64,000 nucleotides of DNA from positions 145,224-209,223 of the forward strand of contig JBIIZQ010000001.1 of assembly GCA_044346175.1 (NCBI GenBank). The letters run 5' to 3'. The stretch is from Vampirovibrionales bacterium. Its GTDB lineage: Bacteria; Cyanobacteriota; Vampirovibrionia; Vampirovibrionales; JAJTHC01. The stretch's first letter is position 1. The number at the start of each line of letters is the position of its first letter. The notes under the pieces are model-generated. The model was given only the letters and a program-made list of their open reading frames with translations. It made no database searches and was not told where the DNA came from. Positions 9,337 to 40,419 of the stretch are shown in pieces. The position numbers and the translations under genes are program-made.

Positions 9337-12300
9337 TTAGAACTCACTCGATAGAATCTCTTTAAGACTGTCAAACGTCAGGAACTTATCCATAGCGGAG
9401 CGGTCAGCCGAGATAATCGAGTCAACCAAATCACGCTTCACGCCTTGAAGCCGTTGGATTTTTTCTTCCACAGAGCTACGAGTAATCATCCGATAGACAA
9501 ATACCGTCTTGTTCTGTCCAATCCGATAGGCTCGGTCGGTGGCTTGGTCTTCTGCGGCAGGGTTCCACCAAGGGTCGTAGTGAATGACCACATCCGCGCC
9601 TGTTAGGTTTAATCCTGTGCCACCCGCTTTAAGGCTAATGAGGAATAAAGGAATATCGGTCTGCGTATTAAACTTCGTGACTTCCGCTTCTCGGTTACGT
9701 GTTTCACCCGTAAGGTAACAGTACTTTAAGCCTTCTTCATCCAACCAACCACGAATGATTTTAAGCATCTCAACAAATTGGCTAAAGAGTAGGATACGAT
9801 GTCCGTTTGCAATGGCGGAAAGTACAAACTCCTTCAGGGCTTCAAACTTACCAGAGGTCATGACATTCCCTCGGATAGCAGGGTCAAGCAGCATCGGGTG
9901 GCAGCAAATCTGTCTGAGACGAATCAGCGCCCTGAAAATGGCAGCTTGTGCCTTTTTTAAACCTGTTTCGCTCGGGTCGGACATAATTTCACGGCGGGTC
10001 TCCTCAAGCACACGCAAGTAGAGGTCGTACTGCTCGTCGGTCATTTCGCAATGATGGATACTCTCAATTTTAGGAGGTAGCTCTGAAAGTACATCCTGTT
10101 TTAAACGACGCAACATAAATGGCGAAACCTGTTTACGTAAACGACGCTCGGCATCACGATTGCCTTTTTCTTCAATGGGGAGTACGTATTTTTGTCTGAA
10201 GAGGGGCTTTTCATATAAAAAGCCTGGCATTAGGAAGTCAAACAAACTCCATAGCTCCAAAAGGCTATTTTCAATAGGGGTACCTGACAATGCTAAACGA
10301 TGATTGGCATTGAGTTCCTTAGCGGCAAGTGCGGTTTGCGATTCAGGATTTTTAATATTCTGTGCCTCATCCAAAATGACGCAGCGGAACGGGTACTTTT
10401 TGAGTGCTTTAATATCACGTCGCATGATGGTGTAGCTTGTGACGACAACATCGGCTTGTTTAATATGGGTGTACTCATCAAAACGGGTTGACCCTGTTAA
10501 ATTAAGCACCTGAAGTTCAGGGGCAAAGCGTGTTAGCTCATTGACCCAGTTAAACACCACCGAGGTAGGCGCCACAATCAGTGAGGGGGCTTGCCCGTGG
10601 ATGTTTTTAACATGTTGAAGTAATGTAATGGCTTGGAGGGTTTTACCAAGCCCCATGTCGTCGGCCAAAATACCGTTAAGCCCATAGTTATGAAGGAACA
10701 GGAGCCAGTTAAACCCTTGCGTTTGATAATGACGCAAGGTCGCTTGGATGTTCTCAGAGGGTGGTACTTCTTGGATGGGCTTACTGGAAGACATCACTTG
10801 CCAGAAGCCTTGGAATTGCTCATCCATGTTTAAAATCACGCCTTGGTCTTGCAACTCAGAGAGTAAACCTGCCTTGAAGGTTTGTACCAGATAGCTATCA
10901 GGGCCAAGGGTTTCAGCGTCAAAGGCTTGAATGGTTTTGCCAAACTGAAGCACGGTGGCTAAAGGCACTTCCACATAACCAGCCCCATCCAGATAAAAAT
11001 ACTTTTTACCTTGGAGCATGTAGGTTTGTACCTGCCCTAAATCCATCGTAATTTGGTCAACTTTGGCCGATAAGTTCAAACGGAACATATCCACTCTACC
11101 AGGCTCGAAGGCAATATCGGCAACCAGTCTCAATGGGTATTTAGAGACCTTAATCACGTTGAGGTCTTGCTGATTAGTGGGTAATTTTACCTGCCAACGG
11201 TGCTTATCAAGGCTAGGAATAATTTCATGAATAAAGTCAATGGCTCTATCGCCCTCGGCTTGGAAAAAATTAGCCTGAATGGGTTCAACCCCTAAATGAA
11301 CCAAATGCTCGAAGGCTTGCTGCTCGGCTTTCAAGTCACGCTTCATCCAGTAGATTTGGTCAGGGTTTTGCTTTACGACCATCACATACATACTATTTTC
11401 AGGCAGACTCCGTGTGTAGGCAACTTCCACGCCATCATAAGAGAAGGTCATACTGATACGCATTCTCAACGCTGCGGGGTCAATGAGTTCCACATGAAGT
11501 ATGCTCACAGGGGGGCGACGATAAAGCTTTGGACTGGTCAGCCCACCCCCAAAGTCTAAACTTAGGAAACGTTGGATTTTAGGTAACTCCTCAAAGAGGA
11601 ATTTTCCACCATCGGTGTCTCGAATATCATTGAAGGTCGACTTGACAAGATGTTTAGGCAACATGGAAAGTCGGATAGAAAGCGGATACAGTGTCTGACG
11701 GTACTGCCCCCATGGTACTTCCTTAGAGAAGATACGCATGGCTTCAAGCGGTATTTCTTCAATGACAGGATGTTTTTCACCCTGTTTATCCACCAGTAAC
11801 TGATGCTGTGCCTCCACGGAGAAAACCTTTTCAATATCAGCCTCTGAGGTATAATCACCCACATGCTCGTGATGACCAAAAAATAAGTCATCCCATACGT
11901 AATCCTCAGGGGCTTCAGGCACAAGCCAATGTAAAGAGGTCATGACATGACCGCCTTGTCCTGAAGCATTCACGGAGAGCTGGAGTACCAACGGGGTAGG
12001 GTAAAAATGGAAAGGAGCCCCTGTTTCTGCTTCAAGCACAAGGGGGTGGTGAGAAATAACCCGCAGGACATGGTCCAGTTTCTGCACGGGTAATTCAATC
12101 CAACCCTCCAGAGGATGCCGTGAGGGGAACGGAACCACTTGCTCCTTATGGAACCACTGCATTAGACGAATCTCTTGCTGCTCAATATCATTCAAGTGAG
12201 AAGTGCCGATGGTTGCTGCCAGACGAAGGATTTTCTCAAACTGTGTAACGGGTTGACGGGTTAAACGCTCAATTAAACGAATACCGACGTAACGGTCATC

Positions 12301-14247
12301 ACGGTGTAAGTCAAGTAAAATGACATATTGACAGGAGGCGGCGGCACTTAGCTTTTCATATTGCTCTTTAGGGGGGAGTTCTTGAGGGGCGGTGTGAGGC
12401 GAGTACGCCTGCCAAAAACGTAGCCAGTACCCACTATCAATGACGGTCAGTGCTGCCGCAATGGCATGCTTACACCAAATTTGTTCCAATGGACAGTTAC
12501 ACTCAGGACGCAAAGGGAGTTCTTCAGCATGGAGTTTTACTTGGTAGCCCTCTTTGAAACGCCCTTTAATTTCAGCATGGAAGCCATAATCAGTAAGCTC
12601 CACTTTACGCACCTGCCCAGAAGTTTGAAAGTATCCAAATCCACGGCGCCAATCACCAGGTTTTGCCCATTGACGAATCAGCTGAAAAGTCAGCGGGTAG
12701 AAATCGCTTGCCCACTGGACATTTTTTTCTGTGTGGAGCGGTTCATCACTCACATAAGGTTCGGGGAGGGTGGTTACGCTATCAGTGAAGTTTTCAGCTG
12801 TGTGCTGTAGCCTTTCCTCAAGTGCATACTCAAAAGTACGGTGGCGTGTTGTTGCTTCAGGCAACACAACAGGGGGTACTGTTTCAGCAGTCAGTGCGAC
12901 ATCGTGGTGTGGCAAGGTATCAGCTGCTGAGGAGGCTTGCGAGTGGTCTAAAATCTGCGAGGTGTAGGGAATTGTTTCACCGAGAGGAGGCTTGCTATTC
13001 TCTGAAAAATCTTCTAATACCCTCGAAGTAGGAAGAGAGGCTTCTACAAGCCCTTGTGGTAGCTCTGTTTCAGAAGTTTTTAGGCTTTTCTGTGAGGTTC
13101 CCTTAGGCGGACGACCTCGACGTTTCGGCATCACGACTTGTACTGCGGATACCTCGACCTCTTGGGAGGATACGACCGCTTCAAGCCCTTGTAGAGGGGC
13201 TTGCAAGCTTTCTTTTAAGTTTTCTTGGTGGGTTGTGGTGCTGGTTATAGCAACCGTCGACACGGCGTGTGTAGGTTCCAAGGCTTTCAGCTTTGCTGGA
13301 CGACCCCGTTTACGTTTTTGAATAGCTTCTACCATGTCTTTTGGGGTAGGTGCGTTCGGTTGCAGTACCATCGCCTGCGAGGTTTCTGTAAGGTCGGTTG
13401 CCATGGTCAACACGAGACCTTGCGTACTAAGTGAGTTTGGAGGCAAACTTCCAGGTAAAGAGGCTGTTTTTTTTGCAGGTCTAGGGGTGCTGCGTTTGGG
13501 ATGATGTCGCTTTGTGGTACCCGATACACTATTTTTTGAGTCGGAAGCCTTAGAAAAAGCCCGAGCAGACTGCATGGGGTCTGCTTTTCCAGTGGTTTTA
13601 GATTTCTGCTTAGTCGTTTTAAGGTTTTTACTTAGTGTGCCACTTGTTGTACTAAGGAGTGAGGGTGCTTTGGTGGGTCGTCCCTGTTGCTTTGCATTTT
13701 TACCTTTGTGTGATTTTTGCTGCCCCACAACTTCTTCTTGGTATACTTGCATCGCCTGGTGTAAGGCTTCTGCCAGTTGCTCAGTGGAGACTCCTAAACG
13801 AGGTAAAGGATTCTTGTAGCCTTTGGCTTTAAGCTTTGTGGGTGCTTTGGGAAAATGCCCTTGTGTGTCGGGTTTATCTTGTGGATGAGAGCCGTTTGTA
13901 CGTCTTTTAGGGGCTGCCATGGGGCGAGACCGACTCGTTTTTGAGCCTAAAGTCTTTGAAGCGTTTTGAGAGGATGAGAGGTTTGTTTGCAAAGTATGTG
14001 TGCTTGGCGTATTGCCTTCAGAGGATAATATTTGAGATACTTGAGAAGTCACCAATGGCTTTGCGTCTCTCCCTCTTTGTTTAGGTGTTCCCTGTGAGGA
14101 GATGGCTGGCGTGGCTTGTTCTGATTTTGCTTTGGGAGGACGACCCCGTTTCTTAGGAACCCCTTGGGATGTGTGTAGGGAAGCTTCGGAGGAAGCGTTG
14201 GAAACTTGGCGTTCTTGAGCCATCGAAGGGTCTGAAGTAGTGCGCAT
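9337..14247 (-). CDS. SNF2-family helicase with SWIM zinc finger and a ~550-aa disordered N-terminal tail carrying AT-hook motifs
   Basis: 1636 aa. SWIM motif CNCPLEQIWCKH. SNF2 motifs GLGKT, DEAQNIKN, SGTPIEN. Helicase C motifs GGTGLNLTGADVVIHYDPWWNP and QATDRAYRIGQ. The N-terminal tail has RGRP AT-hook cores at residues 34-37, 314-317 and 377-380. Confidence 0.85.
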   Translation of the reverse strand: MRTTSDPSMAQERQVSNASSEASLHTSQGVPKKRGRPPKAKSEQATPAISSQGTPKQRGRDAKPLVTSQVSQILSSEGNTPSTHTLQTNLSSSQNASKTLGSKTSRSRPMAAPKRRTNGSHPQDKPDTQGHFPKAPTKLKAKGYKNPLPRLGVSTEQLAEALHQAMQVYQEEVVGQQKSHKGKNAKQQGRPTKAPSLLSTTSGTLSKNLKTTKQKSKTTGKADPMQSARAFSKASDSKNSVSGTTKRHHPKRSTPRPAKKTASLPGSLPPNSLSTQGLVLTMATDLTETSQAMVLQPNAPTPKDMVEAIQKRKRGRPAKLKALEPTHAVSTVAITSTTTHQENLKESLQAPLQGLEAVVSSQEVEVSAVQVVMPKRRGRPPKGTSQKSLKTSETELPQGLVEASLPTSRVLEDFSENSKPPLGETIPYTSQILDHSQASSAADTLPHHDVALTAETVPPVVLPEATTRHRTFEYALEERLQHTAENFTDSVTTLPEPYVSDEPLHTEKNVQWASDFYPLTFQLIRQWAKPGDWRRGFGYFQTSGQVRKVELTDYGFHAEIKGRFKEGYQVKLHAEELPLRPECNCPLEQIWCKHAIAAALTVIDSGYWLRFWQAYSPHTAPQELPPKEQYEKLSAAASCQYVILLDLHRDDRYVGIRLIERLTRQPVTQFEKILRLAATIGTSHLNDIEQQEIRLMQWFHKEQVVPFPSRHPLEGWIELPVQKLDHVLRVISHHPLVLEAETGAPFHFYPTPLVLQLSVNASGQGGHVMTSLHWLVPEAPEDYVWDDLFFGHHEHVGDYTSEADIEKVFSVEAQHQLLVDKQGEKHPVIEEIPLEAMRIFSKEVPWGQYRQTLYPLSIRLSMLPKHLVKSTFNDIRDTDGGKFLFEELPKIQRFLSLDFGGGLTSPKLYRRPPVSILHVELIDPAALRMRISMTFSYDGVEVAYTRSLPENSMYVMVVKQNPDQIYWMKRDLKAEQQAFEHLVHLGVEPIQANFFQAEGDRAIDFIHEIIPSLDKHRWQVKLPTNQQDLNVIKVSKYPLRLVADIAFEPGRVDMFRLNLSAKVDQITMDLGQVQTYMLQGKKYFYLDGAGYVEVPLATVLQFGKTIQAFDAETLGPDSYLVQTFKAGLLSELQDQGVILNMDEQFQGFWQVMSSSKPIQEVPPSENIQATLRHYQTQGFNWLLFLHNYGLNGILADDMGLGKTLQAITLLQHVKNIHGQAPSLIVAPTSVVFNWVNELTRFAPELQVLNLTGSTRFDEYTHIKQADVVVTSYTIMRRDIKALKKYPFRCVILDEAQNIKNPESQTALAAKELNANHRLALSGTPIENSLLELWSLFDFLMPGFLYEKPLFRQKYVLPIEEKGNRDAERRLRKQVSPFMLRRLKQDVLSELPPKIESIHHCEMTDEQYDLYLRVLEETRREIMSDPSETGLKKAQAAIFRALIRLRQICCHPMLLDPAIRGNVMTSGKFEALKEFVLSAIANGHRILLFSQFVEMLKIIRGWLDEEGLKYCYLTGETRNREAEVTKFNTQTDIPLFLISLKAGGTGLNLTGADVVIHYDPWWNPAAEDQATDRAYRIGQNKTVFVYRMITRSSVEEKIQRLQGVKRDLVDSIISADRSAMDKFLTFDSLKEILSSEF

Positions 14248-28240: not shown

Positions 28241-30232
28241 TTATTTGAAAAGAGGTAATGCCTGACGTAGGCGTGCATTTTCCTCTTCAAGGGATGTGAT
28301 ACGTTCCAGCAAAGAAGGTAAATCTTCAAGCCCTTCTTGGGTCTTTACCGTTTTTTCTTGCAAATTACGGGTTTGCTGATGCTGTTGCTGATATTTTTTC
28401 ACACTTGAGTAGAGGGTCAAGCTGGGCGAGTGGCGTAGGAGTCCTGTCACCATGGTACACGCACGCTCAACGAGTTCAATTTCAAATTCACGTTGCAAGT
28501 TTGCATCAACATGCCCTGTATAAGGGTGCATGACACGCTGGCGGATACTCTGATTGAGCAATAATTTATGGCGGAGAGGGTCGTCGGATAACTTAAGTTG
28601 TGGGTTATACCAACGCAGGGCTCCATGGAATACGGATAACTCTTTACCTAAAAGATTACTCAGAAGATACGTTACTTGAGGCTGAAGCACCACGACATGG
28701 GCAATCCCCAGGAGGTAATGATGGAGGAATTCTGGGTCGAGCAAGGGCGTGCGTGCATCACGGTCATAGGTCATCACTAACACGGGCAGGGTTCGTTCGG
28801 TAGACAATAAAAAGCGTTGAAATTGGTCAAACGCAATGTCATCGCCTACTATCCAAGGACTTGGACGAAAACGGACAACACCATCAAACAAACCTAACTC
28901 TTGAGAAAGTTGACGCAGGAAATGTGGCATTTGACGATGTTTTACAGGTGTCATATGCCCACCCTTGCACACATACTGACTCAAGCTCATCAAGACATGC
29001 GTACTCTCCTCTTCAATATGCTCGTCTAACACTACCTGTGTGACCCACTTTCGTTGAGGCACCTGAGCATCGTCTTGAATAAATTGTAACGCCCAATAGG
29101 GTGGCTCCATGATAGCTTCGCACTCTGAGCCGCCAAAAGCTGCGTAATTCACTTGAAAACTTTCGCCTTGGTACGCCACGGCAGGTAAACGACATTGTTG
29201 GTCACGTACCCACTGGAGGACTTTACTTTGGACGTTTTCAATAATCAATGCTTTATCTTCATGCTCTCGTCCCACTTCAACCAGTAAATTAAACACAGGC
29301 TGAATACTTGTGGCGGGGTTAGGCATCCCTGCTTGTCCAGACGGTGTTACCTGAGAAGCACCATAGGGACCAGACATGGCATGTGCTTCATGAGACGGAG
29401 AGGGAGGCATATAGCTCGATGCTTGATGCACAGGCGTATAGGCTCTGTGAGAAGAACGCTTGTCATAGTAAGTATTCCCACCACCATAGCCTTGAGGGTA
29501 TCCTTGAGCCGTGCCTGTATCATAAGAAGAGGAAGAAGGATAAGGACGATATCCTGATGCCCCATGGAATCCAGCATCAGAAGGTTGCCCGTCATGGGTC
29601 GTGTAGCCCGATAAACCCCCTAGCTCAGGGGTGGTTGTTTGGGGTGCGTTGCCGTGTGGTATATGGGTAGAACTATGATGATTGGCGGTATGGCGAGAGG
29701 TCTCTTGACGAGGGTTTTCTTGTGCATAAAAGTTAGCATCGGGCGGATACCCATTGCTTTCATAGCCATAATGATGCGTAGGCACTGGTGCTGGATAAGA
29801 TGCTCCTTGGTAGTTTGAGGGTTTTCCGTAACGTCCAGCAGAAGGGTGGGAGGCTGCCGTCTGCCCATAATGTCCTTTAGGGTGACGATGTCCATGTGCC
29901 TCGTAACCTTGATAGGATTGGGGTGCTGCTGTAGAGGCAAAGGCTGGTACGGTATTTTGGGTGCCTTGAGAGAAGTTAGCTTGATGCGTGTACTCAGTGT
30001 GGGCTGTATCGATAGAGGGGTAATGATACCGCTCTGTGTCAGCGTTTTCTTCTGGTAGGGTGGGTCGCCCTGTTGGATGTGTGTAAGGACGTGAGGTTCC
30101 TAAGGGCAGAAAATTAGACGAATAGTCAGAAACGTTATCCCCTGTCGTGTCGTGTTGACCAGATGTCATACCAGTATCCTGTGTTGCTTGTGATACTTGA
30201 GGATTCACAGTGGGGTCATAAGAAGAGGTCAT
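28241..30232 (-). CDS. Protein with a Y/G/S/P/H/Q-rich prion-like N-terminal half, a structured C-terminal half and a terminal coiled coil
   Basis: 663 aa. The C-terminal domain has no recognised motif. Ends LERITSLEEENARLRQAL. Confidence 0.45.
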   Translation of the reverse strand: MTSSYDPTVNPQVSQATQDTGMTSGQHDTTGDNVSDYSSNFLPLGTSRPYTHPTGRPTLPEENADTERYHYPSIDTAHTEYTHQANFSQGTQNTVPAFASTAAPQSYQGYEAHGHRHPKGHYGQTAASHPSAGRYGKPSNYQGASYPAPVPTHHYGYESNGYPPDANFYAQENPRQETSRHTANHHSSTHIPHGNAPQTTTPELGGLSGYTTHDGQPSDAGFHGASGYRPYPSSSSYDTGTAQGYPQGYGGGNTYYDKRSSHRAYTPVHQASSYMPPSPSHEAHAMSGPYGASQVTPSGQAGMPNPATSIQPVFNLLVEVGREHEDKALIIENVQSKVLQWVRDQQCRLPAVAYQGESFQVNYAAFGGSECEAIMEPPYWALQFIQDDAQVPQRKWVTQVVLDEHIEEESTHVLMSLSQYVCKGGHMTPVKHRQMPHFLRQLSQELGLFDGVVRFRPSPWIVGDDIAFDQFQRFLLSTERTLPVLVMTYDRDARTPLLDPEFLHHYLLGIAHVVVLQPQVTYLLSNLLGKELSVFHGALRWYNPQLKLSDDPLRHKLLLNQSIRQRVMHPYTGHVDANLQREFEIELVERACTMVTGLLRHSPSLTLYSSVKKYQQQHQQTRNLQEKTVKTQEGLEDLPSLLERITSLEEENARLRQALPLFK

Positions 30233-32181: not shown

Positions 32182-32570
32182 GGTTTAAACAATCTCCTAG
32201 ATGGAAACGAAAGAGGATGCAACGGAGGGTGTTTCGTGTCGTTTGTTGTGATTGGGCAATAGATGCCTCAAGCTACGAGACGATTATAACTGTATACCCT
32301 ATATATAGGTGTAGCACACCCATCGAGTAGGGCGGGCAGGTGGTAAAAGGACAATGAACCCTCCACACGAGATACTACTATCAATGCCATAAAGACACGT
32401 TCTTGAAAAGCGAAAGTTTCGTTGTGACCTACGTTTGCTTGGTAACATTGAGCTTATCCTGATTTGATGATATTTTTAGTGTAAATCCCGCTTAAGTCGA
32501 TAATATGTTCCCAATTTTAAACAAAAAACTTTTAAAGTGAGTTAAAGAAATCGAAAGTTAGGTTGAGTTT

Positions 32571-35500
32571 ATGGTGCTATACGACAACAAAGACAATAAA
32601 GTATCCGATTTCTTGGAAATGTATTTGGAGGAGGGTGCTTCATTACGTTTAGTATCAGCTTATTTCACGGTGCAGGCTTTTTTTAAACTACGCAATAAAT
32701 TGAATGGATTGAAAGAGACTCGCTTCCTTTTCGGTGAACCTCGCTTCATTCAAAAGATAAACCAGAAAGAAACAGAGTATCAACCGTTTAAAATAGAGGG
32801 GGAATCAATTAAGCCCAGTTATGCTATCAAACAAAGTTTACTTGCTAAGGCTTGTAAGCAATGGATTGAGAAAGATAGTGTACATATTAAATCTGTGAAA
32901 CAATCAGGCTTGCTTCACGGGAAAATGTACTATGTAACGAGTAAAACGAATGCTACTCAGGCAATTATTGGTAGTTCTAACTTTACTGAGGCTGGTTTAG
33001 GGTTCTCTCAGTCACCTAACATAGAGCTTAATATGACCGTTGAAGACAGACGGGACTGTCACGACTTAGAAAAATGGTTTGATAGCCAGTGGTGCAGTGA
33101 TAATTTAGTAGAGGATGTGAAGGCAAAAGTTTTATATTATCTTGAACAGTTATATCAAAAAGTCTCTCCCAAAACACTCTATTACAAAACGCTATTTCAC
33201 CTTTTTGAAAGACACTTAGAAGACAATCAAAATGTGGAAGATGCCGAAGCTAAAACAAGACTTCCTGAGACGGTTATATGGCAAGCGTTATATGGATTTC
33301 AAAAACAGGCAGTTCGTTTGGCTTTAAGTAAATTAGAACATTATGGTGGATGTATTATAGCCGATAGTGTGGGTCTTGGTAAAACCTATGAGGCACTTGC
33401 GGTTATTAAGGCATTTGAAAATAAGAATAAAGAGGTTTTAGTGTTATGTCCTAAAAAGCTGGAACGTAACTGGAAACAGTTTATTGAAAAACGGGACACG
33501 AATCCGCTCCTGAAAGACCGTTTCTCTTATACGGTAAAACCACATTCCATTTTTTCAACGCAAGAGGAAACAGCCTTTGCTTGGAATCATTTTGAACTTA
33601 TTGTAATAGATGAATCACACCATTTTAGAAATGAAAGTGCCTCTCGCTTTCAGAAACTTTTGGATGTTATGAAAACCTCCAAGCCTAAAGTTTTGTTGCT
33701 ATCAGCAACGCCTGTTAACAATAATTTAAATGATTTGAAAAACCAATTACGGTTTATTGCTTCTGATGAAAGTCATCATTTTGATGATGATATTTTAGGA
33801 ATTTCAAACTTTAAAACCTTGTTGGATCATGCCCAAAGAGAATATAAGGCTTGGTATGATTCTAAAGGGTCTGATACCAGTAAGGTGAAAAACCTTCAGG
33901 AGTGCCTTCCTATAGACTACTTCAAGTTGTGTGATGAAATCATTATTGCACGTTCTCGTAAGCATATCGAAACCTTTTACAAAGAAGATTTGGAGAAGCT
34001 AGGTGCGTTTCCTCGAAGGCTTTCTAACCTTTCTTATAAGACATACCCATTAAAAATAGGAGACCCACTTTGTTATGAGGAGTTGGCAGAATGTTTTGAA
34101 GACCTAACGCTTGCCTCCTATAAACGAAGTGACTTTATTAAACCCGAGTATCGTGAGCGATACAGAGGTATGAATCATGACCAAATTGTTGGATTGTTGA
34201 AAATAGGGCTGTTTAAACGTTTGGAAAGCTCTGTTTCCTCTTTTGCATCAACCCTTACTCGTATGATTGAGCGTATTGAAAATATTCAAACAGGCTTAGA
34301 ACATGCTAAGTTTGACAGAGACATACTTGACATCAATGACCTGTTTATTGAAGATGATACGCTCCTTGATGCTATGGAGACCCATAAGTATGACAGAGAA
34401 GGTATACCACTTGAACATATTGATATAGACACATGGCAACAAAAGTTAAGAGCAGATAGAGAATTATTGGAAAGCATGTTTGGCTTAGTGCAAGATGCAC
34501 AAGGTCAAAATGATGGAAAATTAGAAAAGCTCAAAACCCATATTCAAGACAAGTTAAAGCAAAATAATCGTAAAGTCTTAGTCTTTACGCAATACTCAGA
34601 TACTGCCTCTTATCTGTACAAAGAGCTAAAAGAATTGTTGCCTCATGCTTCTTTAGGACTGGTTACAGGCACAGAGACTAAAGCAACTTGTGGTGCTGTT
34701 GATTTTGAAAGTATTTTAAGCAACTTTTCTCCTCGTTCTAAAAAAAGACTCACCCATCAAGAAATTGATATTCTGGTTGCAACAGATTGTATTTCTGAAG
34801 GTCAAAACTTGCAGGATTGTGACCAAGTGGTTAACTACGATATTCACTGGAATCCTGTTCGTCTTATCCAGCGTTTTGGACGAATTGACCGTTTGAATAG
34901 TCAAAATAAAGCCATTCAAATGGTTAATTTTTGGCCAACAGAGACCCTAGAAGATTATCTTAAGTTAGAAAGGCGTATTTCTGGAAAGTCTGAGCTTGCG
35001 AACTTAAGCACCTCAGGGAACGATAATGTTTTAAGTGATGAAAGTGTTGAATATGATTACCGTAAGAAGCAATTTGAAATTATTGAGGACGAGTCAGGTC
35101 ATCTGGAAAATGTCATGAAAGATGACTTAGATTTTTCTTCACACTCTTTCAATGACTTTATCACTGAGTTGTTACAATTTTTAGGCACGCAAAAAGAAGC
35201 CCTTAGGAAAATGCCACTGGGGTTACACGCTATTGTTGAATCAGAAACTCAAGCATCTCTTGGTACGATTTTTTGTTTGAAACAAACTGTGAATACGAAG
35301 CGTAACAAGCATGTGAACGCTTTTAACCCGTACTACCTCATTTACGTTACTGAAAAAGGTATACAGGGTACCTCTATAAAAACCAGAGCTGAAGCATTTG
35401 AGACTCTAAACCTTTACAGACAACTATGTAAGGATAAACATCGTCCTAATGAGGAGCTTTCAAAGTGGTTTGATGAAAGGCTTGAGAATCAGAATAATGA

Positions 35501-35669
35501 CTTTGATAACCTCTTGAAAAGAGCCATTGCTTCGCTTTCTTCTGATTATAAACATCAAGTAGAAAAACTTATTGACAATTTTGATATTGAGTTACCTCAA
35601 TTTAATGAGAATGAAGCCGTTACAGATGAATCAAGTTTAGAGCTAGTCACATGGTTAATTATACGTTAG
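32571..35669 (+). CDS. PLD-family nuclease domain fused to an SNF2-family helicase
   Basis: 1032 aa. N-terminal HxK..GSxN motif (LHGKMYYV...IIGSSNFT). SNF2 motifs: [23 protein letters not shown], helicase-C [12 protein letters not shown]. The gene is AT-rich. Confidence 0.8.
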
Positions 35670-37525
35670 ATAAGCCATATATTCCTGTACCTCTTAAGCC
35701 ATTACAGCTTAAGAGGAAGCGTAGTTTTTCTGAGATGTATCATCCTTTACCGATACACCCTCAAAATAAACTACAGGAGCTTTTTCGTACGTTGATTTGT
35801 GATGCGAAAGCAGAAGATGCTTTGGCATGCTTTGAGCATCTAGGGTGGGATATTTCTCAACGTTTAGAGGGTATCGGCTATGAGAGTCCGTACGCTTTTG
35901 TAGAGAGTCGACCTCAGGGTGCAAGGTTTGATAAAGAAAAGGCATTATTCTGGCAATGGCATAAAGTTCAGTTACTTTTTAGGTCGCATTATAGCCCTAA
36001 GCGGTCTTCGGGTTTTATTGTTTTAATGGTTCAAATGGATTCTTCTGAAGAAGATAAAAACTATAAGGTCATTTCTCACGAAATCGCTAAATGCTATAAA
36101 TGTTCTGTTTTAATTCTCTATGTGGTAGCGGATAAAACATTATATATTCAGCATGTGGAAAAGCGACCAAGTAAAGATACTAGCTCTAGAGAAGTCATAA
36201 AGGATAGTTTCTTTAAACAAGTGAGGCTTGATGACTTGTATCTCAGCAAAACATTAGACTGGTTAGAAGGCTTTTCATTAGAAACGCTCAATCATGTCGT
36301 TCAAGTGAGTCGAACGTTGAAAAGTTATCCTGTTGAAACGGCTACAGGTGATGACCCATGGGTAAATGGCGTATTAAAAGAGGATGAGCAACAGCATGCT
36401 TCCATGATGCAAAAAAGTGATAACGACTCTGAAGAAGAAGATGACTCTGATGAACCTAAAAGAAAAGATAATAATGACTATGTGAGAATGTATCTTCGTG
36501 AGATTGGACGTATCAAGCTGTTGAACGCTACTGAAGAAATCGAGCTAGCAAAGCAAATAGTAGAGGATGAGTCTTTGGGTGCAACAGCCAAGGAAAAGTT
36601 TGTAAAGGCGAACTTACGCCTTGTTGTAAGTATCGCTAAAAAGTATCTGGGGCGTGGTTTAGAATTTCTTGACCTTATTCAAGAAGGTAACTTAGGACTC
36701 ATTCTTGCTACTGAAAAGTTTGACTACGCCCGTGGATACAAGTTTTCAACCTATGCCACTTGGTGGATTCGTCAAGCAATTACTCGTGCTATTGCCGACA
36801 AAGCACGAGTGATTCGTCTTCCTGTCCATATGGTTGAAACAATTAAAAAACTTAAAAAAATTGAGAGTAAGCTTGAACAAGCACTCAGCCGTAAGCCTGA
36901 TGAGGAAGAGCTTGCCAAGCACATGGGTATCAGTATTAGCAAGCTACGTGAAATTATTCAAGTAGCACAGGAACCCAAATCATTAGACCAGCCTGTAGGC
37001 AAAGAAGAAGGAAGCTGTTTGATTGACTCTATTGAAGATAGCAATGCCGCACGCCCTTTTAAAGATATGGCAGATACACTGCGAAAAGTAATCCTAAACC
37101 ATTTATTTGAATCTCAGCTTTTACCCAGAGAACAAGAGGTATTACGCTTACGTTTTGGCTTAGGTGATAATCGTGAGCGTACCTTAGAAGAAGTGGGGCA
37201 GTTGTTTGGCTTGACTCGTGAGCGTATTCGTCAAGTTGAAGCAAAAGCTTTGAGCAAATTACAGGGGAACTCCGCAAAGAGAGAGATGTTGATGTCTTTG
37301 AAGCATCTTGTTGAAGCAGATAATCTATCAACCATTCGACAGCTTGAAATAATGGAGTCGATAAGCTTTGAAAACTTTAGAGCGATTTTTATCAAAGCAG
37401 AAGCCCAATTCTTGCGTACCGAGCAAGTGAATAGCATCTTAGGGATGTGTCGCCGTATTTGGGTTTTAAAGATGAAAGTATCTCCTCGTTATAAGGCTTA
37501 CTTCAAGAGGAAAGGTCTGCCATGA
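35651..37525 (+). CDS. Sigma-70 regions 1.2-4.2 module embedded in a fusion protein: ~250-aa novel N-domain, sigma module, ~90-aa C-extension
   Basis: 624 aa. Residues ~277-535 are ~80% identical to the rpoD at 52222..53331 ([25 protein letters not shown]...[13 protein letters not shown]). The start ATG lies inside the last codons of the PLD-SNF2 gene (19-nt overlap). A possible internal start is MMQKSD at ~36401. The last 20 nt come from the dcm-derived repeat. Confidence 0.75.
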
Positions 37526-37612
37526 TTTTATCAGCAAGGGCTTTGCCTAAGGCTACGGGTACGGCATTGCCTACCATTTTGTAACCTACGGCAACATCTT
37601 TGTAGTGAAAAA
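37506..37612 (-). pseudogene. Exact 107-bp inverted copy of the 3' end of dcm (residues ~296-331), a fragment only
   Basis: The reverse complement of 37506-37612 is identical to 61069-61175. The track's 74-aa ORF 37503..37727 ends [35 protein letters not shown], identical to Dcm. Confidence 0.85.
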
Positions 37613-37682
37613 ACAAAAAACTATGACGAGGAGAAGCTAGCATTGTAAACAAACCATCCAAAACTGACGAGACATAACACGC

Positions 37683-38727: not shown

Positions 38728-40419
38728 GTGGAGCCTCTTTCAATGTCTATGTACCATTCAATATCCCAGGTTTCTGACCCTTCAATAGTAAAACCGTTGG
38801 CATCTAAAAATAGGAATCAATACGTAGGGCGAAAATTGCCCCTTGTCTGCTTTAATGATGTTTATGATGTGAACCGAATGGCTCAGTTCACCACGGTCCT
38901 TAAAGGATTTTTAAAGCGCTACCCCAATGCAGTAGGCTTATTTGGAGGTGATGTACTCTCTCCGAGTGTAGAGTCTAGAGCGACGAAGGGGTTACACATG
39001 ATTGATGGTTTGAACTATGTTGCCCAACTATTCAAAGGACGGTTCGTAGCTGTGCCTGGAAATCATGAATTTGATTTCGGGTTTTCTAATTTTTCCACAG
39101 CTTTAAAGAAGAGTCGTTTTTCATGGGTGCTTGCCAATGTGGTCACTGATGCTAGTACAAAAAAAGTACTGCCTCCATACGTCGTACTCAATCACCAAGG
39201 TATGAAAACGCTTGTTTACGGATTGACTTTAAAAGAAAATTACGCAAACTTACCAGAACACTTCCAAATAAAAGACCCTTTTGCGCAAGCACATCAAGAA
39301 CTTACGGAACTGCGGAAGCGCATACGTCCTGATGCGACCATTTTATTGGCACACTTGGGAGAGCATACCTACAACGACATCGCCAAGCTTCCTATTGATG
39401 TCGCTATTGTGGGACATGACCACAACCGAAAGCTGTTGACAAAAAACGGCATTAAAATCATACGAGCAGATGCCGATTTAGAGACCTTTGCAGCTTTAAC
39501 ACTACAAATGAAAAAACAACGTCCATTATGGCGGCGTATGATAGCTTTGATGCATGACACGATTTACAATCGTCTTCCTTCTTCTCGTGTAGAGCGTATA
39601 GAGCATCAATTCATTCAGGTATCTCCTCATACAGAACTTGATAAAGGCTTAATGAATCGTATTGACCCTAAAGTTTCTGAAGAGGTACATCGTTTACAGG
39701 AAAGTCTTTTTCAGGCGAAAGAGCCGCTTGATGTCCGTGCAAATAAAATTAGAGGATTTGAATCCCCTATAAGTAATTTATTGACAGATGCTTTTAGGGC
39801 AGGTTGGAATGATGAGCATCCTGATAAACCTGTTGATATGGCTTTGATTCATGCAGGAAATATTCGAGGAGATAAAATTATTCCACCAAAAGAACAGGGG
39901 TTCACCTTAAGAAACTTTTATGAAGTCTTACCTTTTCGTAACCCTGCTTTCCGTATAGAAATGTCAGGTTCTATGCTCCAATCTATATTGGAGCATTCGT
40001 TAGCGCATATTGCAAAGGGGGAGATTCCCAACAAGCATGCGGGGTCGTTTATAACCTTTAGTGGTATACGTGTGGAAGCAGATTTGACAAAGCCTTATGG
40101 AAAACGTATTTTACAAGTTACAACATTAAATGGGAAACCATTAGAAGCCACCAAAACGTATGCTATAGTCATGGATTCTTTTATTCTTCAAAAAGATGCT
40201 GGTTTCCCTATGCTACATGAATATGCCAACCAACATCCAAACAGCGTCTATAAGGATTCAAAGAGTAATTCAGACTATATTAAGTCTTGGCTATTGAAAC
40301 AAAAAAAGGAGGGTATTTCAAATAAACCTACTCTGGACGGACGCTTGCAAAAGACATCGCAGGTTCATCTTGCACATCGATGGTGGACACCACAAAAGGC
40401 TTCTATTAAGGTGTCCTGA
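38728..40419 (+). CDS. Bifunctional metallophosphatase/5'-nucleotidase family protein
   Basis: Calcineurin-like motifs GDVLS, GNHEFD and GHDH, plus the 5'-nucleotidase C-terminal domain pattern. Confidence 0.7.
   Translation: MEPLSMSMYHSISQVSDPSIVKPLASKNRNQYVGRKLPLVCFNDVYDVNRMAQFTTVLKGFLKRYPNAVGLFGGDVLSPSVESRATKGLHMIDGLNYVAQLFKGRFVAVPGNHEFDFGFSNFSTALKKSRFSWVLANVVTDASTKKVLPPYVVLNHQGMKTLVYGLTLKENYANLPEHFQIKDPFAQAHQELTELRKRIRPDATILLAHLGEHTYNDIAKLPIDVAIVGHDHNRKLLTKNGIKIIRADADLETFAALTLQMKKQRPLWRRMIALMHDTIYNRLPSSRVERIEHQFIQVSPHTELDKGLMNRIDPKVSEEVHRLQESLFQAKEPLDVRANKIRGFESPISNLLTDAFRAGWNDEHPDKPVDMALIHAGNIRGDKIIPPKEQGFTLRNFYEVLPFRNPAFRIEMSGSMLQSILEHSLAHIAKGEIPNKHAGSFITFSGIRVEADLTKPYGKRILQVTTLNGKPLEATKTYAIVMDSFILQKDAGFPMLHEYANQHPNSVYKDSKSNSDYIKSWLLKQKKEGISNKPTLDGRLQKTSQVHLAHRWWTPQKASIKVS

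Follow-up and report, generated by a model that had tools for sequence, protein, structure and literature searches.

In a stretch of 64,000 nucleotides from a Vampirovibrionales bacterium (contig JBIIZQ010000001.1, positions 145,224 to 209,223; hereafter the window), a 5.1-kb tract of low GC content holds two overlapping genes. Gene 1 encodes an SNF2 helicase with an HKD (PLD) nuclease domain, and gene 2 encodes a domain resembling DUF4391 that is fused to a complete RpoD-type sigma factor. The pair is a rare, undescribed variant of a widespread restriction-like cassette in which genes for an HKD-SNF2 helicase, a DUF4391 protein and a DNA methyltransferase follow one another; it is a derived form of this cassette, with its DUF4391-type partner fused to a sigma factor. 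An earlier note on this DNA had treated the two genes as a free-standing new pairing, a view that the kinship with the cassette overturns. By our favoured reading, whose chances we regard as evenly balanced, the tract would be a minimal two-gene restriction-like defence cassette of the HKD-SNF2/DUF4391 family, in which the adaptor tethers the nuclease-motor to RNA polymerase or to promoters. The genes and their domains are arranged as follows (aa, amino acids; nt, nucleotides).

32571 to 35669, plus strand: gene 1, HKD(PLD)-SNF2 helicase of 1032 aa, predicted ATP-dependent translocase-nuclease effector (PADLOC and Pfam).
32850 to 33092, plus strand: PLD/HKD nuclease domain, aa 94-174, with H116-x-K118...G134SSN137 (PLDc_2 at 33.4 bits, RE_NgoFVII at 31.1 bits).
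33297 to 33770, plus strand: SNF2 N-lobe, aa 243-400, with motif I GLGK271T, motif II D347ESHH and motif III SATPVNN (Pfam SNF2-rel_dom and ResIII).
34518 to 34895, plus strand: helicase C-lobe, aa 650-775, with motif VI Q767RFGRIDR (Pfam Helicase_C).
35651 to 35669, plus strand: 19-nt overlap between the ATG of gene 2 and the stop codon (TAG) of gene 1, implying translational coupling.
35651 to 37525, plus strand: gene 2, DUF4391-like domain fused to a complete RpoD-type sigma factor, 624 aa (open reading frame, Pfam and homologues).
35762 to 36295, plus strand: DUF4391-like domain, aa ~38-215, of predicted restriction-endonuclease-like fold; predicted helicase adaptor with no recognisable catalytic motif.
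36296 to 36475, plus strand: acidic linker, aa 216-275, poorly conserved (17% mean pairwise identity among fusions).
36476 to 37264, plus strand: sigma-70 regions 1.2, 2, 3 and 4, aa 276-538, including the region 2.2 core-binding segment and the 2.3/2.4 and 4.2 motifs (Pfam).
37295 to 37525, plus strand: C-terminal extension of ~75 aa, present in this copy only and without Pfam or PHROG match.

All the HKD and helicase catalytic signatures are present in gene 1, and the coordinates and the fusion of an HxK...GSxN nuclease motif to a full SNF2 core had been read correctly in the earlier note. The protein is matched from residue 6 to 1002 by the PADLOC model PDLC01075 'C3a139 HKD+Snf2' (E=7.4e-92, model positions 7-928 of 948), which also recognizes an E. 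coli member at 404 bits and the member of an AT-rich organism (L010) at 416 bits. Matches to the PADLOC models of DrmD, BrxH, DpdE, PbeA and HmaA are only partial, that of HmaA being confined to residues 644-794, and the NCBIfam equivalogs (DrmD, PLD anti-phage protein, RapA) place gene 1 far below every cut-off. The scores are 176 bits against a cut-off of 610 for NF038317 (DrmD), 106 against 950 for NF038318 and 62 against 576 for NF003426 (RapA). Orthologues with 68.5% identity occur in Vampirovibrio sp. OL03a (L007) and in L001, and the family extends to 50 IMG/VR contigs and to phrog_26785. In the plasmid record MW265923.1 a gene-1 homologue is named 'rapA'; it lies far below the curated RapA cut-off, and the name is likely a misannotation.

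Full-length homologues of gene 1, with 32-36% identity, are found on 118 plasmid records. Six plasmids were examined, from six genera (the hosts being Leuconostoc, B. cereus, Mycolicibacterium, Acinetobacter, E. coli and Desulforapulum), and in all six the next gene encodes a DUF4391 protein and the one after it a site-specific DNA methyltransferase; a DEAD/DEAH helicase gene follows in five of them. RefSeq labels these products 'helicase-related protein', 'DUF4391 domain-containing protein', 'site-specific DNA-methyltransferase' and 'DEAD/DEAH box helicase'. To PADLOC the last two are MTase_III and REase_III; its models include none for the DUF4391 protein. On the B. cereus plasmid the cassette directly follows drmA and a DUF1998 (DrmB) gene, and is thus linked to DISARM. 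An open reading frame for DUF4391 also sits at the helicase stop in 35 of the 44 IMG/VR helicase loci with room downstream, and in L012 a free DUF4391-like protein is encoded ahead of a methyltransferase and an ATPase of the L010 type. The cassette comes in several variants, consisting of HKD-SNF2, DUF4391 and methyltransferase with or without a Type III Res, an ABC ATPase or DrmAB. No characterization of it was found in the literature, and DUF4391 receives passing mentions only in the indexed literature. A further arrangement is seen on the IMG/VR contig L143 (L143:3336-8018), where the helicase is followed by a 1560-aa protein with an N-terminal DUF4391-like domain, presumably a Type IIG-like fusion and thus a third wiring of the domain after the helicase.

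The window pair shares with this cassette a helicase that is a full-length member of the family, tight coupling and a partner gene starting at the helicase stop; that the N-domain of the partner belongs with DUF4391 is suggested by indirect homology. It differs in that the partner carries a whole RpoD-type sigma factor and in that neither a methyltransferase nor a Res gene is present in the window, whereas the L010 member has a methyltransferase. The nuclease site differs as well. PLD is detected by Pfam, and the HKD motif is intact, in the helicases linked to sigma fusions (window, L007 and L010), whereas in five Type III-linked plasmid versions (L014, L015, L017, L018 and L019) Pfam detects no PLD and the HxK and GSxN positions are substituted. 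The HKD site appears to be kept where the Res nuclease is missing and to have decayed where Res is present. This suggests that the nuclease role passed to Res in the Type III-linked cassettes, and it would fit a sigma-linked form whose only nuclease is gene 1.

The N-terminal domain of gene 2, once described as unrecognisable, turns out to have homologues among free-standing DUF4391-like proteins and at the N-terminal ends of Eco57I-type methyltransferases. Neither this domain nor the C-terminal extension is matched in direct scans with Pfam, NCBIfam and PHROG. A profile built from three N-domains and run against 1.84 billion representative proteins finds 13 proteins, namely the sigma fusions P0125, P0126, P0128 and P0132, two DUF4391 (PF14335) proteins and the N-termini of Eco57I/TaqI_C methyltransferases of ~1230 aa. 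In profile-profile comparison the fusion N-domains match the DUF4391/Eco57I-linked group with 99.8% probability (E=7.5e-29), and still with 99.1% when the intermediate P0132 is left out. The Eco57I-linked DUF4391-like family itself reaches 24-30 bits with PF14335, around the cut-off of 29.9, while the plasmid DUF4391 proteins are strong members with up to 234 bits; gene 2 itself gives no match to PF14335. The domain is called DUF4391-like on the strength of a sequence link to PF14335 that is transitive and borderline, together with an exact equivalence of position. Since this N-domain is conserved and has detectable homologues, gene 2 truly begins upstream of the sigma part, as had been supposed, and not at an internal methionine.

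An AF2 model of the N-domain, computed from an alignment of 75 sequences, suggests a restriction-endonuclease-like fold; it replaced a model from a three-sequence alignment that was unusable (pLDDT 44). Foldseek comparison of the model with PDB and BFVD gives no significant match, and a profile search of the domain against PDB sequences matches no chain. No conserved acidic/lysine triad of the D...(D/E)xK kind is evident in the Vampirovibrionales fusions, in which near-invariant family residues (Q, N, R, D, H) are substituted; these residues are kept in P0132. On its residues, the DUF4391-like domain of gene 2 would be placed as a remote branch of the family that has lost many family-invariant positions. 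The free DUF4391 protein of relatives is probably non-catalytic.

Sigma regions 1.2, 2, 3 and 4 were expected within gene 2, and Pfam places them at residues 276-538. The embedded part is larger still: in tblastn the similarity to RpoD begins at about residue 203, so that the N-terminal acidic region of RpoD is included and essentially a whole primary-type sigma factor is contained in gene 2. Identity between the sigma segment and the 355-aa RpoD of Gastranaerophilales and Clostridia amounts to 60-70%, and the region 2.3/2.4 and 4.2 motifs of the segment are identical or near-identical to those of the RpoD P0011. In the window copy the -10 and -35 contact residues are the same as in the primary sigma factor, where the assignment of residues to core and promoter contacts is one that we take from established sigma-70 structure-function knowledge. 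Gene 2 is labelled 'RNA polymerase primary sigma factor' by JGI; this is likely a misannotation, as the protein stays below the curated cut-offs of the RpoD equivalog models (394 vs 555, and 387.5 vs 572).

Conservation along the protein is uneven. In mean pairwise comparisons among seven fusions, identity is 39% for the DUF4391-like domain, 17% for the linker, 44% for region 1.2, 74% for region 2 (84% in its region 2.2 core-binding segment), 29% for region 3 and 61% for region 4. All seven keep the region 4.2 helix TRERIRQxE unchanged, and the residues beside it hardly vary. The alignment thus shows a selective conservation of the core-binding and promoter-contact segments, with drift of region 3 and of the linker. 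In a distance tree the sigma module of the window stands beside genuine RpoDs (62% identity) and away from the other fusions (38-49%). The fusion of Vampirovibrio OL03a (L007:9932-11734) has an insert of ~50 aa between regions 1.2 and 2.1, substitutions at the equivalents of E. coli Y425, Y430 and T440, which are -10-melting and recognition residues, and a region 4 nearly identical to that of genuine RpoD; its sigma module looks mosaic or recombinant. An insert of ~30 aa interrupts region 4 in four fusions. All homologues terminate at ...LKGFLD, aligned to window residues ~549-555. The C-terminal extension, which had been counted as a part of the protein of ~90 aa, is ~75 aa long, idiosyncratic and missing from all homologues, and probably arose by read-through after loss of the ancestral stop codon, so that it would not be a domain.

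The two genes form a genuine conserved pair, translationally coupled and located in defence or mobile islands in other genomes. An HKD-SNF2 gene lies directly upstream of every sigma fusion whose upstream region is informative, which bears out the expectation that such fusions would co-occur with PLD-SNF2 proteins elsewhere. This is the case in L001/L002 (P0003), L003-L005 (P0016), L007, the Vampirovibrionales metagenome-assembled genome (MAG) L008/L009, L010 (P0132), L011 (P0126) and the contig of P0128. The start of gene 2 in the last 19 nt of gene 1, recognized from the outset as a sign of coupling, is no accident of the window, as the same 19-nt overlap with its ATGG...TAG/TAA junction recurs in L001, L003, L007 and L011. 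Between the same genomes gene 2 is only ~41% identical, as against 68.5% for gene 1. The fusion is rare, with about five 50%-identity clusters among the 1.84 billion representatives. No sigma fusion was found in IMG/VR, and neither this viral scan nor two metagenome scans brought further true fusion relatives, all 120 motif matches being chance. The second-best match to gene 2, P0002 (L006), was rejected: this protein of 434 aa, encoded on a 2.2-kb contig, contains a tandem duplication of sigma regions 1.2-3 and most probably reflects a misassembled rpoD of Gastranaerophilales.

The neighbourhoods of the other copies match the defence-island setting that the earlier note had proposed, with Gabija, Type I and Type III restriction-modification genes beside them. 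For example, the copy of L007 lies in a low-GC island with a large serine recombinase gene upstream; Gabija (GajA/GajB-like) and Type III Res/Mod genes lie downstream in convergent orientation. The copies of L001-L005 are accompanied by the same GajB, with 87-90% identity. In the case of L008/L009, the surroundings comprise ArdA, a Type I restriction-modification system with an IS200-like gene, and HTH-Fic genes. In L010 a single operon encodes, in this order, the HKD-SNF2 helicase, the DUF4391-like sigma fusion, a Type IIG-like restriction endonuclease-methyltransferase and an ABC-type ATPase. The Type III pair beside the L007 copy shows no specific relationship to the Mod and Res of the canonical cassette, so no hidden restriction-modification linkage is claimed for that genome.

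Some copies are truncated. In L003 (L003:1-124) and L004, both at contig starts, and in L008 (L008:7925-8000), the match to the helicase does not set in before residue ~385-391. A distinct short form was considered for the '649-aa helicases' of L003 and L004, and this was rejected: the DNA of both is 99% identical to that of L007 up to a breakpoint at a transposase-like 3' end. In L003 this breakpoint is sharp, and the sequence before it encodes a C-terminus that closes with ...LKECEWRFNLRSQNIYAILLKELRKNPL and a stop codon. Such a C-terminus is typical of IS1595-family transposases. The break in L008 lies ~23 nt away from that of L003 and abuts the ArdA gene. L003/L004 and L008 look like independently disrupted copies of the system.

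In the window the pair occupies a horizontally acquired tract, as is evident from its GC content, the repeat that flanks it and its absence at the locus of the closest relative. The borders carry the following features.

32519 to 32530, no strand: 12-bp direct repeat AAACAAAAAACT, left copy, marking the left edge of the low-GC tract.
37521 to 37610, minus strand: 3'-terminal remnant of a gene for a C5 cytosine methyltransferase, with a motif X-like GNAVPV, a weak PF00145 match within the repeat-bounded tract.
37611 to 37622, no strand: right copy of the repeat, the second of only two in the window.

The GC content of the tract (32531-37610) is 38.0%, against 46.7% in the remainder of the window. 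Across 97 windows of equal size outside the tract it averages 46.9% (standard deviation 1.2, minimum 44.2), which makes the tract an outlier by ~7 standard deviations. The value of ~38% in the earlier note is thus accurate and its ~50% for the flanks too high, these being at ~47%. Codon choice is atypical too, as the same note had remarked, with a GC content at third codon positions (GC3) of 32-35% in the tract against 44-47% in the flanking iPGM and SDR genes. The repeat has exactly two copies in 64 kb where 0.03 would be expected. Since the test was a post hoc one and the repeat is rich in A, the pair of repeats is only suggestive of an insertion scar and no proof of one. The methyltransferase fragment reported at the end of the tract does match the end of PF00145 (positions 295-323 of 324, E=0.0014), and does so weakly, at 18.6 bits under a cut-off of 22 bits.

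The nearest iPGM, with 86% identity, comes from a Vampirovibrionales MAG, and the other matches are from Vampirovibrio or Vampirovibrionales; homology of the host flank at the DNA level with the relative L016 runs to ~32420. In the nearest relative the iPGM and SDR orthologues enclose HD-domain, DUF1292 and NTP-transferase genes instead of the pair, which is therefore not vertically fixed at this locus and, as had been presumed, is no conserved housekeeping locus. The neighbours of the pair in the window are genes for iPGM, SDR, 5'-nucleotidase, GrpE and DnaJ, and neither an integrase nor any other mobility gene was found among the window's open reading frames and the neighbours. Just past the island, a 5'-nucleotidase/metallophosphatase gene (38728-40419) has a GC3 of 34.6%, and the bin at 39-40 kb a GC content of 40%; this gene may be another acquisition, or else the variable region could reach to the right beyond the repeat.

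HKD-SF2 helicase effectors are well known from DISARM, PbeABCD, Type-2 BREX-related systems and Hma (PMC10853773, PMC12839542, PMC8565338, PMC11232893), and an N-terminal HKD joined to an SF2/SNF2 helicase serves as a restriction-type effector in PbeA, in the Type-2 BREX-related helicase and in HmaA (PMC10853773, PMC12839542, PMC8565338). The pair shares with class 1 DISARM (DrmD SNF2, DrmC PLD, DrmMI, DrmA, DrmB) the combination of SNF2 and PLD, together with the partial DrmD-model matches in gene 1. It differs from DISARM in the fusion of both parts in one protein and in the absence of DrmA, DrmB and a methyltransferase from the window, where the lack of DrmA and DrmB next to the pair had already been pointed out; DISARM, for its part, has no sigma component. 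The partners of PbeA, the Type-2 BREX-related helicase and HmaA are again different, being a CxC-ABC ATPase with DndE, DUF499 with DUF3780, or a 5-methylcytosine methyltransferase with an ATPase, and the papers on these systems report no sigma-fused partner (PMC10853773, PMC12839542, PMC8565338). Hma is defined by HmaA, the 5-methylcytosine methyltransferase HmaB and the ATPase HmaC (PMC8565338), and neither HmaB nor HmaC is present in the window. RapA/HepA, the RNA polymerase-associated SNF2 ATPase, is set apart from gene 1 by the NF003426 score given above.

A sigma-70-family subunit in a validated defence system has a precedent in MzaA. The Mza system (mzaABCDE) was validated against T4 (bioRxiv 10.1101/2022.06.16.496414), and its MzaA resembles gene 2 in carrying a C-terminal sigma-70-family module in a larger protein of a defence operon. 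The resemblance is limited to this module: the NCBIfam MzaA model (NF041931) gives gene 2 319 bits against a cut-off of 800, over model positions 429-711 only and below its RpoD score, and the PADLOC MzaA model aligns at positions 429-659 of 683 only, that is, with the sigma part. Gene 2 shows no match to the N-terminal ~430 aa of MzaA and has no Mza-type neighbours (MzaB-E). No explanation of the role of the Mza sigma subunit was found in the papers. As for the Type IIG/IIL restriction-modification enzymes (MmeI, DrdV, BpuSI and the Eco57I class), the difference is that the recognition module here is a sigma factor and not a methyltransferase with its target-recognition domain (TRD), and that no PD-(D/E)xK catalytic motif was identified in the N-domain of gene 2. 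Literature searches found no description of a sigma factor fused to DUF4391 or paired with an HKD-SNF2 protein, in agreement with the earlier suggestion that the combination is undescribed.

The reading that the cassette would tether its nuclease-motor to RNA polymerase can be set out in steps. The effector would be gene 1, a DNA translocase of the SF2/SNF2 type whose HKD nuclease site is intact. Gene 2 would fill the slot of the small DUF4391 protein of relatives, which is encoded between the helicase and the methyltransferase/specificity subunit or fused N-terminally to an Eco57I-type methyltransferase. As the DUF4391-like domain is encoded at the helicase stop, or stands N-terminally in a methyltransferase-TRD protein, in these relatives, it is taken as an adaptor that would dock the HKD-SNF2 motor. 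The sigma module would bind the RNA polymerase core and sigma-A-type promoters, and the nuclease-motor would thereby be delivered to transcription-initiation complexes. As a targeting module the sigma part would replace the methyltransferase/TRD in the Vampirovibrionales and supplement it in L010. We infer by this route the contact of the DUF4391-like domain with the helicase, the binding of RNA polymerase, the cleavage of DNA and the anti-phage effect. A more specific form is offered tentatively: the sigma factor may be the targeting subunit of a restriction-like nuclease-translocase that is loaded through the holoenzyme at sigma-A promoters, such as strong early phage promoters, or, in a close variant, a mimic of the host sigma that senses phage sigma-hijacking proteins. 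Of the two roles first suggested, an undescribed defence system or one of transcription hijacking, the contexts of the other copies agree with defence; hijacking by a phage is not favoured, because no copy of the fusion was found in IMG/VR.

Several observations weigh against the tethering of a nuclease to RNA polymerase. The Vampirovibrionales form is without a methyltransferase, and a nuclease tethered to RNA polymerase would have no obvious way to spare host promoters, which is the chief weakness of the reading. In HHalign the N-domain family of gene 2 is only weakly related (23%) to the Type III-linked plasmid DUF4391 proteins. The substitutions of -10-melting residues in L007 and the inserts in region 4 may mean that the fusions can do without complete promoter function. 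Finally, the disrupted copies of L003, L004 and L008 would fit a costly or decaying system.

Because the form without methyltransferase has no self-protection mechanism, and because gene 2 evolves fast and as a mosaic, a decoy or guard function is a serious rival, although we consider it unlikely. The RpoD-like part would then be a bait for phage anti-sigma or sigma-appropriator proteins, whose binding leads the DUF4391-like domain to free or activate the HKD-SNF2 nuclease, with abortive infection or DNA degradation as the outcome and without self-marking by methylation. The position of the window sigma among genuine RpoDs and the mosaic modules fit a repeated refreshment from the host rpoD, and the faster evolution of gene 2 (~41% vs 68% for gene 1) is what would be expected of a component where host and parasite meet. 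For this lineage, however, no phage ligand is known, and the high conservation of region 2.2 and of the DNA-contact helices is equally explained by a real holoenzyme function. The retention of a methyltransferase in L010 suggests, moreover, a classical marking of self and non-self in at least one member.

Somewhat less probable again is a dedicated transcription factor, in which gene 2 would be an alternative sigma with a regulatory N-domain, perhaps controlled by the helicase, that switches on the operon, the island or a stress regulon upon infection while the helicase-nuclease acts separately. All the sigma regions needed for this are present, and the contact residues of the window copy equal those of the primary sigma. 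This very identity with the housekeeping sigma makes a purely regulatory factor less likely, as no distinct regulon can be defined from it. A scan for promoters and terminators gave nothing above chance, and no promoter-like signal stood out in the operon or ahead of it. The N-domain has its homologues in subunits or domains of enzymes of the restriction-modification kind and not in any known sigma-regulatory domain, and its strict coupling with the helicase favours a common complex.

We regard as improbable that the pair is a weapon of a mobile element or phage that takes over host transcription and degrades the DNA of the host or of competitors. The foreign composition, the flanking direct repeat, the serine recombinase and ArdA near other copies, and the presence of the gene-1 family on IMG/VR contigs and in phrog_26785 speak for such an origin, but no sigma fusion was found in IMG/VR, the neighbouring genes serve host defence (Gabija, Type I and Type III restriction-modification) and not phage structure or replication, and no integrase or other mobility gene accompanies the window copy. 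Least tenable by far is a housekeeping locus of a primary sigma factor (gene 2) and a RapA-like RNA polymerase recycling ATPase (gene 1): the JGI name of gene 2, the 'rapA' name of one plasmid homologue and a weak NCBIfam RapA match speak for it, but it is excluded by composition, by distribution (a pair missing at the locus in the relative with the 86%-identical iPGM, set in different neighbourhoods in different genomes and limited to about five fusion clusters), by scores under the RpoD and RapA cut-offs and by the HKD nuclease domain of gene 1.

Two further observations concern other parts of the window. In a 663-aa protein encoded on the minus strand at 28241-30232, the N-terminal half is a long stretch of low complexity in which Q, Y, G, P, S, T and H abound, and Pfam gives no match; an orthologue, 38% identical, adjoins iPGM in the relative L016, and the protein appears lineage-specific. 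On the minus strand at 9337-14247 lies an open reading frame of 1636 aa, and the 1-kb bin 13001-14000 within it shows a strongly negative AT skew of -0.30 and a GC skew of +0.18.

The widespread and uncharacterised DUF4391 family gains from this analysis a context, as the obligatory companion of HKD-SNF2 helicases in cassettes linked to Type III, Type IIG and DISARM systems, as well as a predicted restriction-endonuclease-like fold and a testable role as adaptor between targeting and motor-nuclease modules. A whole RpoD in the targeting position amounts to a natural experiment, which suggests that effectors of the restriction type lend themselves to a coupling with RNA polymerase or with sigma mimicry. 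The pair would be a second, independent sigma-containing defence architecture besides MzaA, and the role of sigma factors in immunity becomes testable with a two-gene construct. For the Vampirovibrionales, annotations as 'primary sigma factor' and 'RapA' would mislead metabolic and regulatory reconstructions from MAGs. If the sigma module does tether the nuclease or mimic the host sigma, it would represent a new coupling of the transcription machinery to immunity at the DNA level, and might explain the sigma subunit of Mza.

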